A stretch of DNA of 18,111 bases from a candidate division WOR-3 bacterium (GTDB taxonomy: Bacteria; Hydrothermota; Tepidihabitantia; SM23-42; JAOAFX01), in assembly GCA_039802265.1 (NCBI GenBank), contig JBDRWI010000047.1, forward strand, positions 1 through 18,111. The letters run 5' to 3'. The notes under the pieces are model-generated. The model searched no databases. It saw only the letters and a list, made by a program, of their open reading frames with translations, and was not told where the DNA came from. Of the stretch, positions 5,307-13,063 are shown one piece after another (within the stretch, counting starts at the first letter, position 1; the number at the start of each line of letters is the position of its first letter). The position numbers were made by a program, and so were the translations under genes.

Positions 5307-5334
5307 ATTTTACCTAAATTTATAGTTTTGTCAA
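5307..5334 (-). promoter_or_regulatory. ftsK promoter TTGACA-N16-TAAAAT, apparently leaderless
   Basis: Minus strand TTGACA 5334-5329, TAAAAT 5312-5307, ATG 5 nt later; no SD. Confidence 0.7.
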
Positions 5335-5365
5335 TACACCCAGCGTTATTCAAATAAACCAACCC

Positions 5366-5393
5366 TTGACCCATAAGTATTTCTGACTATAAT
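5366..5393 (+). promoter_or_regulatory. Promoter of the ATPase operon, TTGACC-N16-TATAAT, apparently leaderless
   Basis: TTGACC 5366-5371, TATAAT 5388-5393, ATG at 5400 after 6 nt; no SD. Confidence 0.72.
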
Positions 5394-5399
5394 AAAATT

Positions 5400-6239
5400 A
5401 TGCAGGAAGTCCTTGAAGGGTTGAAAGGGCTAATAAAAAGTTCCCAGCGGATTAAAAAATTGCTTGATAGTTATACAAAGTTAAAAGAAGACCCAGTACT
5501 TAATGCCTATTTAATGGAAAAGAAAGTCCTTGAAATATCAAAGATTGTCAATTCCCTGCCGGATTTTGTGATCAAAGAATCCTTAATCACCTGGTTGAGT
5601 CAGCAGAAGGAGATACTGGAAAAGGCAAAGGAAGATTTCCGTTTTATGGTGGGTGAGCGGATTAAAGAATTTTTTCAAAAGGAAAACATAAAAATAAAAG
5701 GGCAATTTCCTAATCTGCGTATCGGCCTTTATACATTGAAGATGAATTTTGAATTCGGTGAGGCAACACTCTATTTTGGTCCGGAGATTGAAAGGATAAA
5801 ATCAAAAATTCCCCTTGAGCCAATGACAATTTACCAGACAGTGAAGCAATATGATGAAGAGTTGAAAGATATAAAGTTTGAACCCTATGAGTTTCATCAG
5901 GATTTATTGACTGCCTATCAAAGAAGGCTTTCTTTGTTGAACAAACCCTGTGGTGAAAAGTTGTTAATCACTGAGGTATTGAGTGAATATGTGATTACCA
6001 AGCAACCACCACAATTTTTTACTGACCCCCGAAAGGAAAACTATAAAGAATTTTCCCGGACAAAGCTTTCTTATCTGTTATATCGCTATAAAAACTCCGA
6101 ACTTTCCATTAAAAAACCCCGTTTTTATGTCGCCACATTTGATGCTACCACCGATAGAAGGCGTGCCTTATGGATTCCGGATAATGAAGAAGGTGAGGGC
6201 ACATACTACTCGTACATTGCCTTTGAGAAAGACACTTAA
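5400..6239 (+). CDS. Hypothetical protein (279 aa), first gene of the tandem DUF2791 ATPase operon
   Basis: Long ORF with its own promoter; helical/coiled-coil-like N-terminus; C-terminal alpha/beta segment FSRTKLSYLLYRY..VATFDATTDRRRALWIP..GEGTYYSYIAF; stop codon 1 nt before the next ATG. Confidence 0.85.
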   Translation: MQEVLEGLKGLIKSSQRIKKLLDSYTKLKEDPVLNAYLMEKKVLEISKIVNSLPDFVIKESLITWLSQQKEILEKAKEDFRFMVGERIKEFFQKENIKIKGQFPNLRIGLYTLKMNFEFGEATLYFGPEIERIKSKIPLEPMTIYQTVKQYDEELKDIKFEPYEFHQDLLTAYQRRLSLLNKPCGEKLLITEVLSEYVITKQPPQFFTDPRKENYKEFSRTKLSYLLYRYKNSELSIKKPRFYVATFDATTDRRRALWIPDNEEGEGTYYSYIAFEKDT

Positions 6240-6240
6240 G

Positions 6241-7497
6241 ATGGATAGAATAACTCCAACTCTTGCCAAGGCGATTATTCATAAACTTGCTGGTTATGGA
6301 ACACCCCCGGAGTTTGGCGTTGAATACTTCAGTGTTGGGCTTGATCCCTATCTGCGGGTTATTGAAGATGAATATCTCAATGATGTTTTGAAGTGTAACC
6401 TTTCTTCTTTTAAATTGGTTACCGGTAATTATGGCGGTGGTAAGACCCATTTTCTATATTCAGTCCGCAATCTCGCCTGGAAATATAACTATGTAACAAG
6501 TTATGTATCATTGAGCGCGACTGAATGCCCCTTTGACCGCCTTGAACTGGTCTATAAGAAGATCGTTTCCAATATCACCTCGGCATTGAGTGAAGAGGAT
6601 ATACTCAAGCCCTGGGAGTTGGGTATTGATGTTCTTCTGCGCAAGTGGTATCAAAGGGTAAAGGAAGAGCGAAACTTCCTCTCCCTGGTCAAAAATTTAG
6701 AGAGCATAAGTTATACAAATGGTATAAAGGGGGCTTTGATGAATCTCGCCAGTGATGATGAAGAAGGTTTCACTTCTTTGGTTCAGTGGCTGAAGGGGGA
6801 AGAGATACCAAGGGAATTGAGATTGAGATACCGTATATCGGAAAGGATTGACCGCACCACTGCCTTCAGGATGCTCAGGAGTTTGATTCAGTTTGTAAAT
6901 TCAATCGGATATAGCGGGCTCATTTTGTTGTTTGACGAGGCAGAACGGGGAATGAGTATTGCCTCTGCCAGGGATAAAAGGAGGGCACTTGATAATCTGC
7001 GTCAGATTATTGATGAATGTGGAAATTCACGCCTGCCTGGGGCAATGTTTTTCTATGCAGTTCCAGATGAGAATCTTCTGCTTGAGGGAACCGGCGGGGT
7101 TTATGAGGCATTGAATCAGCGCCTCCGTTCAAGTTTTACCAAGGTAAATCCGATGGGAGTGAAGATAAACCTTGAGGAGATTGGAATAACTCCGGAGGAT
7201 TTTCTATTAAGTTTGAGCAAGAAACTGGCTGGTATATTTGAATCTGCTTATTCATTTGAATTTGAACCGGCAGTTTTTGATAAATCGGTGAAAAATATGA
7301 TAGACGCAATCCTGGAGATGCAGATTCTTGATATCAGTTATCGCCGGATATTTGTGGTGGGAATAATTGATGCCTTTCAGAAAATGCGAGATAAGAACAT
7401 ACCGATAGATAAAAATACCGCCCGTCAAATCCTGCGTGCAACAGCAAGTATGCTTTTAAAGAAAGAAAAAGAGGAAGTTGAACGCGAAGAATTTTAA
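6241..7497 (+). CDS. BrxD/DUF2791-family P-loop ATPase (paralog 1)
   Basis: GTPPEFGVEYFSVG; Walker A GNYGGGKTH; LVQWLKGE; Walker B GYSGLILLFDEAE; YEALNQRL. ATG 6241 directly follows the upstream stop, so the 6127 start in the ORF track is unlikely. Confidence 0.88.
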   Translation: MDRITPTLAKAIIHKLAGYGTPPEFGVEYFSVGLDPYLRVIEDEYLNDVLKCNLSSFKLVTGNYGGGKTHFLYSVRNLAWKYNYVTSYVSLSATECPFDRLELVYKKIVSNITSALSEEDILKPWELGIDVLLRKWYQRVKEERNFLSLVKNLESISYTNGIKGALMNLASDDEEGFTSLVQWLKGEEIPRELRLRYRISERIDRTTAFRMLRSLIQFVNSIGYSGLILLFDEAERGMSIASARDKRRALDNLRQIIDECGNSRLPGAMFFYAVPDENLLLEGTGGVYEALNQRLRSSFTKVNPMGVKINLEEIGITPEDFLLSLSKKLAGIFESAYSFEFEPAVFDKSVKNMIDAILEMQILDISYRRIFVVGIIDAFQKMRDKNIPIDKNTARQILRATASMLLKKEKEEVEREEF

Positions 7498-8770
7498 GAC
7501 CGTCTTTCATAATATCTTTGGTGAGGGAATTGTCTTAGAAACACGGTGGGATGGTATTGAGGCCCGTGTCAAATTCCGCAGCGGGCTTTGCCTTTGGCTT
7601 CCAACAAAATGGTTAAAACCGCTAAAAATAGAGGACCGGGAGATTGACCGAATTTCGTCGCGGAGGCTCCTTGAGGCATTCAGAATGGGGATTGTCCCCC
7701 ATCAGGACATTGAATATTTTACCTTCGGTCGGAATTACGAGATTGATCTTTTTCAACAATCCCTTTCGCGGCTGAAGAGAGGTGAAGGGGGTGTCTTTCT
7801 GATTGAGGGCGATTATGGTTCTGGCAAGACCCACCTTGCTGAATATCTGCGCCATCTGGCATTGAAGCAGGGTTTCCCTACAGCCTATTGCGAACTGCAT
7901 ATTCAAGAGACTCCACCTTATCGCCCCAAAAAGATTTATCATGAACTTGTCTATAGCCTCCGTTATATTCAGAATGATTATGAATATAGCTTTCGCGATC
8001 TCTTAAGAAATGCAACGGAAATTGATATCACCGGACACTGTTTTTGGGCGCCGGTTTTAAAAAAGGTAAAGGCGATAAAAGAAGAGGATTTACAAGCCGA
8101 GGTCTTCTGGCAGTGGATTGAAGGCGAATCAACCAAGGAATATGCCATTGACCCACTTTCTCCATATCGCATCCGGGGTGGATATGAGATACCTGCCCTC
8201 TACGACTTTTCCACGGCCAGTGATTTTTATAATTATCTATTGAGTGGAATAAGTTATCTTGTCAATAAACTCGGTATGGGTGGCCTTGTTTTAGTGATTG
8301 ACGAATTTGAAGAGATTAATCATGTCTGGGATTATCGCCTCCGGGAAAAGGGCTTTGCATTCCTTGAAGGACTGGTCAGGATTTCTTTAAATGACGAAGA
8401 AATGAAGAAAATTGATAGTTCAATGCCGCACAATCAGGTGCGGCCGACGCCTTATGCCTATAAAGATACGCATATTCTATTGTTGCTCACAACAACCCCA
8501 ACTGAAGAGGGAGATGTGACAAGATTTATTCCCGACAGGATTTTCCTGAGAAAATTCACGCGTGCCGAGTTTGAGATAATCTTTGATAATCTTCGGCGGA
8601 TTTATAAGACTGCCTACCCGGGCTTTGAAATTGAGGAAAAAATATGTAATAATATATTAAATGCTGCATTGAAAAAGAATCCGCAGGAATTGAGGGAATT
8701 CATAAAATTCGTTGTAGAAGCCTTTGACTGGATGAGATTATGCTACATTCCCCCGGGAAAAGGCGGTTAA
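7478..8770 (+). CDS. BrxD/DUF2791-family P-loop ATPase (paralog 2) with N-terminal Tudor/SH3-like domain
   Basis: LEAFRMGIVP..IEYFTFGR; Walker A GDYGSGKTH; WQWIEGE; Walker B GLVLVIDEFE; N-terminal VFHNIFGEGIV..ARVKF. TTG start overlapping the upstream gene by 20 nt, with GAGGA just upstream. Confidence 0.85.
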   Translation: MNAKNFKTVFHNIFGEGIVLETRWDGIEARVKFRSGLCLWLPTKWLKPLKIEDREIDRISSRRLLEAFRMGIVPHQDIEYFTFGRNYEIDLFQQSLSRLKRGEGGVFLIEGDYGSGKTHLAEYLRHLALKQGFPTAYCELHIQETPPYRPKKIYHELVYSLRYIQNDYEYSFRDLLRNATEIDITGHCFWAPVLKKVKAIKEEDLQAEVFWQWIEGESTKEYAIDPLSPYRIRGGYEIPALYDFSTASDFYNYLLSGISYLVNKLGMGGLVLVIDEFEEINHVWDYRLREKGFAFLEGLVRISLNDEEMKKIDSSMPHNQVRPTPYAYKDTHILLLLTTTPTEEGDVTRFIPDRIFLRKFTRAEFEIIFDNLRRIYKTAYPGFEIEEKICNNILNAALKKNPQELREFIKFVVEAFDWMRLCYIPPGKGG

Positions 8771-8798: not shown

Positions 8799-8826
8799 TT
8801 GATTTTTTCATCTCTTTAAATATAAT
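8799..8826 (+). promoter_or_regulatory. Promoter TTGATT-N16-TATAAT for the VOC gene, apparently leaderless
   Basis: TTGATT 8799-8804, TATAAT 8821-8826, ATG at 8832 after 5 nt; no SD. Confidence 0.65.
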
Positions 8827-8831
8827 TTGAT

Positions 8832-9194
8832 ATGTCGGGAATAGTCTTTTTTAAGACCCGGGACCTAAATGGTATCGTAGAATTCTATGCTAAAAAAATA
8901 GGAATGGAAGAATGGCTGAGGCAAAGTGGTTGTGTTATCCTGAGACACGGAAATATGCTTTTGGGGTTCTGTCAGAGTGAGGAATTAGAAAATCAAGGCA
9001 TTATTACTTTTTTCTACCAAAATACAGACCAGGTTTATGAGATGTATAAAAGATTTAGACTTGAGGCACTCACCGAACCAACAGTGAATGAGAAATATAA
9101 TATCTACCATTTTTTTATCAAAGACCCCGAAGGCAGGATGGTTGAATTTCAGACATTTCTACAACCAATAACTGCTCCTGATTTAAAAATTTAA
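8832..9194 (+). CDS. VOC/glyoxalase-bleomycin resistance family protein
   Basis: 120 aa; TRDL..IVEFY..KIGM at the N-terminus and FFIKDPEGRMVEFQ at the C-terminus. Confidence 0.9.
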   Translation: MSGIVFFKTRDLNGIVEFYAKKIGMEEWLRQSGCVILRHGNMLLGFCQSEELENQGIITFFYQNTDQVYEMYKRFRLEALTEPTVNEKYNIYHFFIKDPEGRMVEFQTFLQPITAPDLKI

Positions 9195-11272: not shown

Positions 11273-13063
11273 TCATTCTTTTAAAATTTCTTTATAACTG
11301 TCGAGAACCACCTTGTAGTATTTTAATGCCTTTTCTTCATCACCCAGGGCGCGATAGATATCTGCCAGGCCTTCATTTGCTGAAACGAGTGTCTCAAGTT
11401 CAGCCAGCTCATTTTTTCGGCGACATAATTCAAGGGTTTTATTATAATAGGCTATTGCTGATTCGTATCCCCCCTTCTTAAATGCCAAACGAGCCGATTT
11501 TAGATAGTATTCAATAGCCCTTTTATAATTTTCTGCCAACTCATAATGGAATGCTGCATATTCTTCGTAGCCTTCTAATCTGCGGTAATAATCGGCCAGT
11601 CTGGTATGTCTCGCCTGCTTATCGGGTATTAGATTATAAACTTCCTCATGTAATAGGGGTGAGGTGAAGATATAACCCTTGCTGGACTTTCTGAGGTAAT
11701 TTTTTTGCACCAATAACTCAAAGCCCTCAACCTGGCCCTCAGCCGGGAATTCCGCGAGGTTAATTTCCTCACCAAAGACAGCCAGACTAAAGAGAAAATT
11801 TTTGTTTTCCCCCAATAGCTCAACACGGCGCTTGATTATTGTCTTTATATCAGTAAACGGAAGGTGATAATCCATAATTGGAGTCTGCCCAGTGTATTGA
11901 TGATAGAGATAGCTGAGTTTTTCTTCGTTATAAAGGGCAAGATATTGATTGATGTGAAACAGGGAGGTTGGCGGAAAGTTAATTCGTTCACCGATATTCT
12001 GTTCAATATATTCTTCAATTTGACGTCGCTCGATACTGATCAGTTCAAATTCTTTCAGTCCAGAGATGTTTACCTGGGAATGCTGGGATGAAAAAATGAA
12101 CCAGACATTTTCATCAATCAATTTCTGGAGCAGGTTCTGAATGAATCGCTCGGAAGAGGAATCAACATTTTCAATATCTTCAAAAATTATCAGAATGCGT
12201 TTGGAAAAACTCATTCTTTTAATAATTTCCGCAATACTACTTGTAAACAGTTCCGTCCTCATTCTTATATCCATCTTTCTTAATATATTGTCCTCGTCGC
12301 CGATAGTGAGAAAATCAAGAACTGCAAGATAGGTGGTGCCAATATCTGCAATTCCGATTTCGTGTAATCTCTTTTCAATCTGTTTCTGCCTTTCTTCAAT
12401 ACTTGTCTTTTCGTCAATTTTAAAAATCTGGTTAACCAATTCGGTTATCGGTTTAAATGTAATATTAACGGGATAGCGGGGGCAATTGATTTTAAAGATT
12501 TCATATTCAGCCGACCACTTTTCAATAAGTTGCTCCAGGAAAAAGGTCTTTCCACTACCCGGTGGTCCGAAGATTAAGACACTTTTGGCTACACTTAATA
12601 AACTCCGGAGTGCATCCATGGTCATCGCTCGCGTGATCACGGTTCGCTCCAGTTTTGGTGAGGGGAAGGTTATCTTGCTCGATGGGGCATCTATCCGGTA
12701 TACTAAGATTTGTGTCTTCATACCTTCAACAGCAAGCATACCCAATGAGGTAATTTGATAATTTTCAATTACAGCCTGTTCTATATCCTGAGAAATCAGA
12801 ATTTCACCAAATTGGGCAATCTTTGCGAGCCCACGCGTAAGCCCGAGGTATTGCGAGATACCAAATCTTATTTCCTGAAAATTTTCTTTCAATTTAAATA
12901 AACAGTTTATAAAAAAGATGTCATTGTGCGATGCGATGATGAGATTTTTTTCCACCTGTTCTATACGCCCGCCAAAATTATTAAAGGTGTGAATGAGCGA
13001 ATTGAATTCACTCTCATTCAAGTCCCGGATAATTGCGCTGATATAATATTCCATATTCTTCAA
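11273..13063 (-). CDS. Degenerate class III nucleotidyl-cyclase-like domain + STAND/AAA_16-type ATPase + TPR protein
   Basis: Cyclase-fold remnants FGGRIEQ, IRFGIS, AQFGEILIS, LGMLAVEG..ILVYRI; Walker A GPPGSGKT; Walker B ILIIFEDIENVD; YIFTSPLLHEEVY; AFHYELA; TPRs. Start is TTG 13063 or ATG 13054. Confidence 0.78.
   Translation of the reverse strand: MKNMEYYISAIIRDLNESEFNSLIHTFNNFGGRIEQVEKNLIIASHNDIFFINCLFKLKENFQEIRFGISQYLGLTRGLAKIAQFGEILISQDIEQAVIENYQITSLGMLAVEGMKTQILVYRIDAPSSKITFPSPKLERTVITRAMTMDALRSLLSVAKSVLIFGPPGSGKTFFLEQLIEKWSAEYEIFKINCPRYPVNITFKPITELVNQIFKIDEKTSIEERQKQIEKRLHEIGIADIGTTYLAVLDFLTIGDEDNILRKMDIRMRTELFTSSIAEIIKRMSFSKRILIIFEDIENVDSSSERFIQNLLQKLIDENVWFIFSSQHSQVNISGLKEFELISIERRQIEEYIEQNIGERINFPPTSLFHINQYLALYNEEKLSYLYHQYTGQTPIMDYHLPFTDIKTIIKRRVELLGENKNFLFSLAVFGEEINLAEFPAEGQVEGFELLVQKNYLRKSSKGYIFTSPLLHEEVYNLIPDKQARHTRLADYYRRLEGYEEYAAFHYELAENYKRAIEYYLKSARLAFKKGGYESAIAYYNKTLELCRRKNELAELETLVSANEGLADIYRALGDEEKALKYYKVVLDSYKEILKE

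Follow-up and report, generated by a model that had tools for sequence, protein, structure and literature searches.

The window, i.e., the whole 18,111-nt stretch that was analysed, carries three co-oriented plus-strand genes: P1 (5400..6239; 279 aa), ATPase A (6241..7497; 418 aa), and ATPase B (7478..8770; 430 aa, TTG start). P1 and ATPase A are separated by 1 nt and the two ATPase genes overlap by 20 nt, exactly as in the tight operon described in an initial annotation of this DNA. The trio is flanked by a divergent ftsK on one side and a VOC-family gene on the other, and its genes have a GC content equal to that of the genome (0.413 and 0.409, respectively). A sigma-70-like promoter, TTGACC-16-TATAAT, was found upstream of P1 (5366..5393, plus strand), matching the consensus at 11 of 12 positions and ending 6 nt upstream of the P1 ATG; a separate promoter-like site (10/12) belongs to the VOC gene. 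The annotated bounds, ftsK and a separately promoted VOC gene, were both recovered, as was the trio's own promoter, which is a consensus match in a region whose 15 sigma-70-like sites are at chance level (12.9 ± 3.6 in shuffles). From its promoter the P1 transcript would be leaderless. For ftsK, P1, and the VOC gene alike, only a few bases separate the −10 box from the start codon (window 5307-5400 and 8799-8832), which suggests leaderless transcripts for all three genes. Farther along the window (11273-13063, minus strand), we noticed a 596-aa AAA_16 and TPR protein with a weak match to a TOMM kinase/cyclase.

Both ATPases matched PF10923 (E = 2.8e-44 for A and 1.8e-27 for B) as well as the PADLOC BrxD/SngB profiles, SngB weakly (E = 2.7e-22 and 9.7e-15), and scored 128 and 80 bits against the NCBIfam BrxD equivalog NF033438, far under its cut-off of 350. 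ATPase A is BrxD/SngB-like, and ATPase B is a divergent PF10923 paralogue that shares 26% identity with it. The Walker A (GxYGxGK[TS]H) and Walker B (DE.E) motifs map to 6424-6447 and 6934-6939 (DE) in ATPase A and to 7808-7831 and 8300-8305 (DE) in ATPase B, all on the plus strand, and are intact across 58 A and 59 B homologues, among the 40 commonest variants of each motif. Judged by sequence, both are members of the ORC/Cdc6-type AAA+ family, which bears out the initial reading of two paralogous BrxD/DUF2791-type ATPases with shared motifs. No further PF10923 gene over the cut-off was present in the host genome (89% complete). Two 1200-aa proteins (C7:25788 and C58:326) gave weak PF10923 matches under it.

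The N terminus of ATPase B holds a Tudor-like domain (7478..7642, plus strand) related to the C-terminal domain of UvrD/PcrA. A profile of 17 ATPase B homologues matched UvrD in the PDB (7egt_B; E = 5.2e-5), the next four matches were DNA helicase II/PcrA chains (E = 0.012 to 0.21), and the HxxFGxG signature is shared, while Pfam PF21196 remained under its cut-off (1 of 17 members, E = 0.01). The domain is C-terminal in UvrD/PcrA but N-terminal on an AAA+ ATPase here. According to the available parts of the source articles, a TGE hairpin mediates binding of the UvrD/PcrA Tudor to RNA polymerase and to UvrB (PMC8318588, PMC5397179), and K712 of PcrA is needed for RNA polymerase binding (PMC5397179). 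That lysine is not conserved in ATPase B, where it aligns to Cys38 in this copy and to K or R in 6 of the 17 rows. The strict helicase-interaction motif, as given in the available part of PMC8318588, was absent from 2078 own ORFs, and the host RpoB has no [TS]GE. The presence of a UvrD/PcrA-type Tudor on ATPase B agrees with the possible transcription link raised initially.

Family-profile and PADLOC searches, proposed in the initial annotation, placed the ATPases but returned nothing for P1, which had no Pfam, PADLOC, or NCBIfam match and belongs to no known family. Its predicted structure (pLDDT 91.9 for the whole protein, 96.5 for residues 85-279 modelled separately) comprises a three-helix bundle (residues 2-93), a beta-meander domain (residues 99-156), and a C-terminal domain (residues 162-275) with conserved basic residues R220, R253, and K212, which we infer to be winged-helix-like from the modelled order of its elements. 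Fold searches with the whole P1 model gave no significant match, just generic bundles and nonsignificant rows that included ORC1 (E = 0.67 to 1.2). A profile search of 50%-cluster representatives recovered 814 relatives, among them records from Promethearchaeota/Helarchaeota and Planctomycetota. Four long forms (P0317, P0318, P0335, and P0387), one of them from Promethearchaeota/Helarchaeota records, contain an inserted Rho_N/HeH-type domain. Similar long forms were seen in the complete four-gene cassettes L206 and L211.

A DEAH helicase lies 3' of ATPase B in 13 of the 20 phylum loci fetched. The host genome encodes its 668-aa copy on another contig, outside the window (G000:C29:8771-10777); this copy is 60% identical to the operon-linked ones, is intact including the Walker motifs, and is surrounded by housekeeping genes. 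The module helicase matches BrxHI (E = 5e-62) and SngC (E = 3.5e-59), and FastTree places the host copy inside the module's helicase clade with support of 1.0, apart from the one BrxHI and one SngC in the tree. A BrxHI/SngC-like helicase is a regular fourth gene of the module. None of the four proteins contains a recognisable nuclease or methylase, in line with the initial description of two paralogous ATPases and a nonenzymatic partner. That description also held that BREX and Shango partners were absent, which stands for the 18,111-nt window, where we found none; the partner helicase is nevertheless encoded elsewhere in the genome, and the notion of a partner-free three-gene module has to be abandoned. 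No BrxC/PglY, PglX, or PglZ core gene was found in the window or beside the helicase. The sole PglZ-domain match in the host genome (89% complete) is a protein of 502 aa, receiver-like in sequence at its N terminus and located among housekeeping genes.

P1, ATPase A, ATPase B, and the helicase were each searched in the same 201 phylum genomes and were detected in 71, 70, 71, and 68 of them, the P1 count leaving out one stop-ridden weak match. Any module gene was present in 72 genomes. Neighbourhood conservation, an early suggestion for follow-up, was observed as co-retention of trio and helicase, all four occurring in 65 of these 72 carriers; set against the alternative of a fragment of a larger known BREX/Shango locus, the trio is conserved, but within an unnamed four-gene module. 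Among the 65 complete sets, the genes are contiguous in 37, only the helicase is detached in 16 (as in the host), 9 are arranged as P1|A-B|helicase, 1 is fully scattered, and 2 have other layouts; some splits could be assembly breaks, and unrelated flanking genes in the fetched loci show real ones in G008, G060, G070, G061, G022, and the host genome. Split genes are retained jointly and are located among housekeeping genes. Because 129 of the 201 genomes have no module gene, including those of families f7 (0/7) and f9 (0/2) from the same class as the host, the module is not essential. Families f13, f16, f17, and f19 likewise had none among the genomes searched.

Copy number is nearly always one, and whole families carry the module (f1 6/6, f2 10/10, f4 18/19, f8 8/8, and f23 8/8). 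The resident phylum copies form one lineage-specific clade in which families are mostly monophyletic (FastTree, 87 and 44 sequences); L051 and the second copy in G185 group with mobile forms. The long residence proposed initially is upheld by this lineage clade and by single-copy inheritance across families. Three Caldisericota/Caldisericia records (L061, L062, and L090) have a trio 53-72% identical to the window's and nested within the host's order in the trees, with an unlinked helicase also present (60-61%), reflecting either transfer of both parts or binning. In two genomes, genes that we take to be reverse gyrases from their N termini (L102:893-4144 and L055:1867-5214) are near module genes.

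Outside the lineage, plasmids from Aulosira laxa and Desulfomonile tiedjei carry the genes in the same order, with each gene closest to its counterpart, and the wide P1 profile finds both first genes (E = 3e-15). The Aulosira cassette (L098:648-12542, AP018310) directly follows a run of PglZ-like, BrxD, and BrxHI genes. Three PF10923-type ATPases and two helicases thereby stand in a row on AP018310. Metagenomes yielded 79 loci, 51 after de-duplication, with P1-A-B-helicase in order in 30 and most others on short contigs; the scan pattern was built from distant members, so these loci sample the non-resident form. Within the phylum of the Methanocorpusculaceae carrier, the distribution is patchy, with 3 strong matches in 201 genomes. 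PADLOC at E ≤ 1e-20 marked 20 of the 93 neighbours, spread over 12 of the 36 metagenome loci, or 10 loci after removal of a TnpB and likely ABC cross-hits; the neighbours in these 10 loci include pAgo, Hma, MADS, DUF499-type, and CRISPR genes. At the same threshold, the control set from the phylum gave matches for 8 of 110 neighbours, of which a single one, the type III methylase at L051 (mobile clade), is clearly a defence gene, so that clear defence neighbours were found at 1 of 21 phylum loci versus 10 of 36 metagenome loci. The Tudor domain is no mark of domestication, since 34 of 35 ATPase B copies of mobile-type loci carry it too. One ORF (L165:10007-12007) starts as ATPase B with the Tudor and scores as helicase, and is a fusion, a deletion, or an assembly error. 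On a haloarchaeal plasmid (L100:937-9020, NZ_CP084465), a single PF10923-type ATPase adjoins two tRNA-guanine transglycosylase-like genes and a restriction endonuclease; this is a different module.

We give roughly even odds to the reading that, in this lineage, the four proteins work as resident machinery for genome maintenance, with P1 and the ATPases loading or switching on the helicase. This role is slightly favoured over phage defence here because the scattered genes are jointly retained among housekeeping loci; counted against it, all characterised close relatives are defence systems. From the observed composition and inheritance of the module we infer the following biochemical steps. 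ATPases A and B would form a hetero-oligomer, like other ORC/Cdc6-type ATPases, and P1 would contribute a DNA-binding domain, which is missing from BrxD-type ATPases. Docking of the complex to a partner protein, possibly the transcription machinery, may fall to the Tudor domain. The assembled P1 and A/B complex would then load or activate the helicase at a DNA structure, and the loaded helicase could clear a stalled fork, an R-loop, or a stalled transcription complex. The mobile cassette is probably a defence system, from which the resident form probably arose by domestication.

A more specific version of the maintenance role, which we regard as unlikely though worth stating, is that the mobile defence-type cassette became a core maintenance machine whose heteromeric loader and DNA-binding subunit recruit an Lhr-like helicase to transcription complexes via the Tudor, replacing a coupling role lost by a truncated host PcrA. 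The host PcrA/UvrD (G000:C11:9772-11697, minus strand; 641 aa) terminates just past the helicase core and has no Tudor. PF21196 was detected in 33 of the 201 phylum genomes, just 1 of which is a module carrier (G183), but this anticorrelation is weak because 97 of the 201 carry no module and no detected PcrA Tudor, G183 combines the two, and related genomes do not count as independent cases. UvrB is widespread (189/201) and UvrA, UvrC, and Mfd are present in the host genome, so there is no repair gap for the module to fill. uvrB was not found in the host genome (G000; 89% complete), where uvrA and uvrC are present, and its absence is probably an assembly gap. The host also encodes an 839-aa fusion of a Ser/Thr kinase-like N terminus, read by eye, and a UvrD-family helicase (G000:C53:10853-13372, minus strand).

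The strongest alternative, which we hold to be a realistic if less probable account, is that the four genes are still anti-phage or anti-plasmid in this lineage, as a Shango-like, nuclease-free system long fixed in the chromosome that senses invading DNA or phage transcription, with the helicase acting to block it. Shango and BrxD-BrxHI as closest families, the orthologous cassettes on the Aulosira and Desulfomonile plasmids, the defence neighbours in 10 of 36 metagenome loci, and the patchy occurrence in one archaeal phylum (3 of 201 genomes with a strong match) all speak for it. Defence systems seldom show family-wide single-copy inheritance, scattering with all parts kept, or an absence of defence neighbours, and the resident copies are single across whole families, keep all four parts when scattered, and have few such neighbours (1 of 21 phylum loci). 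The anti-phage role inferred initially therefore fits the mobile relatives, but the resident lineage looks housekeeping by inheritance and neighbourhood. We consider it improbable that the module is an accessory to another DNA-modification or restriction system (BREX or R-M) encoded elsewhere: several mobile cases adjoin loci of BREX-like, type I R-M, type III R-M, or DUF499-type systems, but these neighbours vary from case to case, and the host genome (89% complete) has one receiver-like PglZ-domain protein and no other PF10923 gene over the cut-off. Least probable is a self-sufficient trio that shed its helicase, which is unlinked in 16 of 65 complete sets and missing beside P1-A-B in 4 genomes, since these are drafts (the G161 trio stops at a contig end), the host orthologue is intact, and presence of the helicase in 67 of 71 P1-bearing genomes largely refutes this candidate.

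The cassette isolates the pairing of a BrxD/SngB ATPase with a helicase, a unit of both BREX and Shango, from methylases and nucleases. With its second ATPase, its Tudor domain, and a small partner whose structure is predicted well, it makes the loader idea testable with four proteins, and plasmids of cultured strains also carry copies. If the resident form does perform genome maintenance, it would be a clear case of a defence module turned core machinery, with domestication visible as an operon falling apart while all of its genes stay.

Like Shango (SngA, TerB-like; SngB, ATPase; SngC, DEAD/DEAH helicase), for which the available part of the report gives anti-phage defence (10.1101/2022.11.11.516204), the module sets a PF10923 ATPase and a related helicase behind a nonenzymatic first gene and contains no methylase. 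It differs in having two ATPases, one with a Tudor, where Shango has one of SngB type, and these ATPases fall in their own clades (0.997 and 0.886; one SngB in the tree). P1 is not TerB-like, whereas SngA is a TerB-domain protein; P1 had no PADLOC or Pfam match, and the wide P1 profile did not match Hymenobacter SngA. The module helicase is homologous to SngC yet forms a separate clade and is unlinked in the host, and the module operon can split. With BrxD-BrxHI of type 2 (and type 6) BREX, the module shares an ORC/Cdc6-type ATPase coupled to a Ski2/Lhr-like helicase; the available part of PMC12839542 classes BrxD among the ORC/Cdc6 ATPases, states that it has no DNA-binding domains, and suggests it as the loader or activator of BrxHI. 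The module lacks the BrxC/PglX/PglZ/PglW core, has a duplicated ATPase scoring under the BrxD cut-off and the extra protein P1, and its BrxHI-like helicase, contiguous in 37 of 65 complete sets, is unlinked in the host and in a separate clade; on the AP018310 plasmid both pairs stand side by side as distinct genes. As described in the available part of PMC8301817, the Lhr-like helicases without Domain 4 are similar in their SF2 core, Lhr-type relatives, and bacterial distribution with scattered archaeal members, but no ATPase partners are described there, and the likeness is one of description. The cassette is not described in the available parts of 10.1101/2025.09.30.679545 or PMC8301817, and our literature search, with subscription papers and supplements outside its scope, found no publication naming it. 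The initial proposal of an undescribed system distinct from BREX and Shango agrees with the absence of a TerB protein and of the BREX core and with the two ATPases. On the sequence comparisons made here, the module is real, unnamed, and distinct from both.
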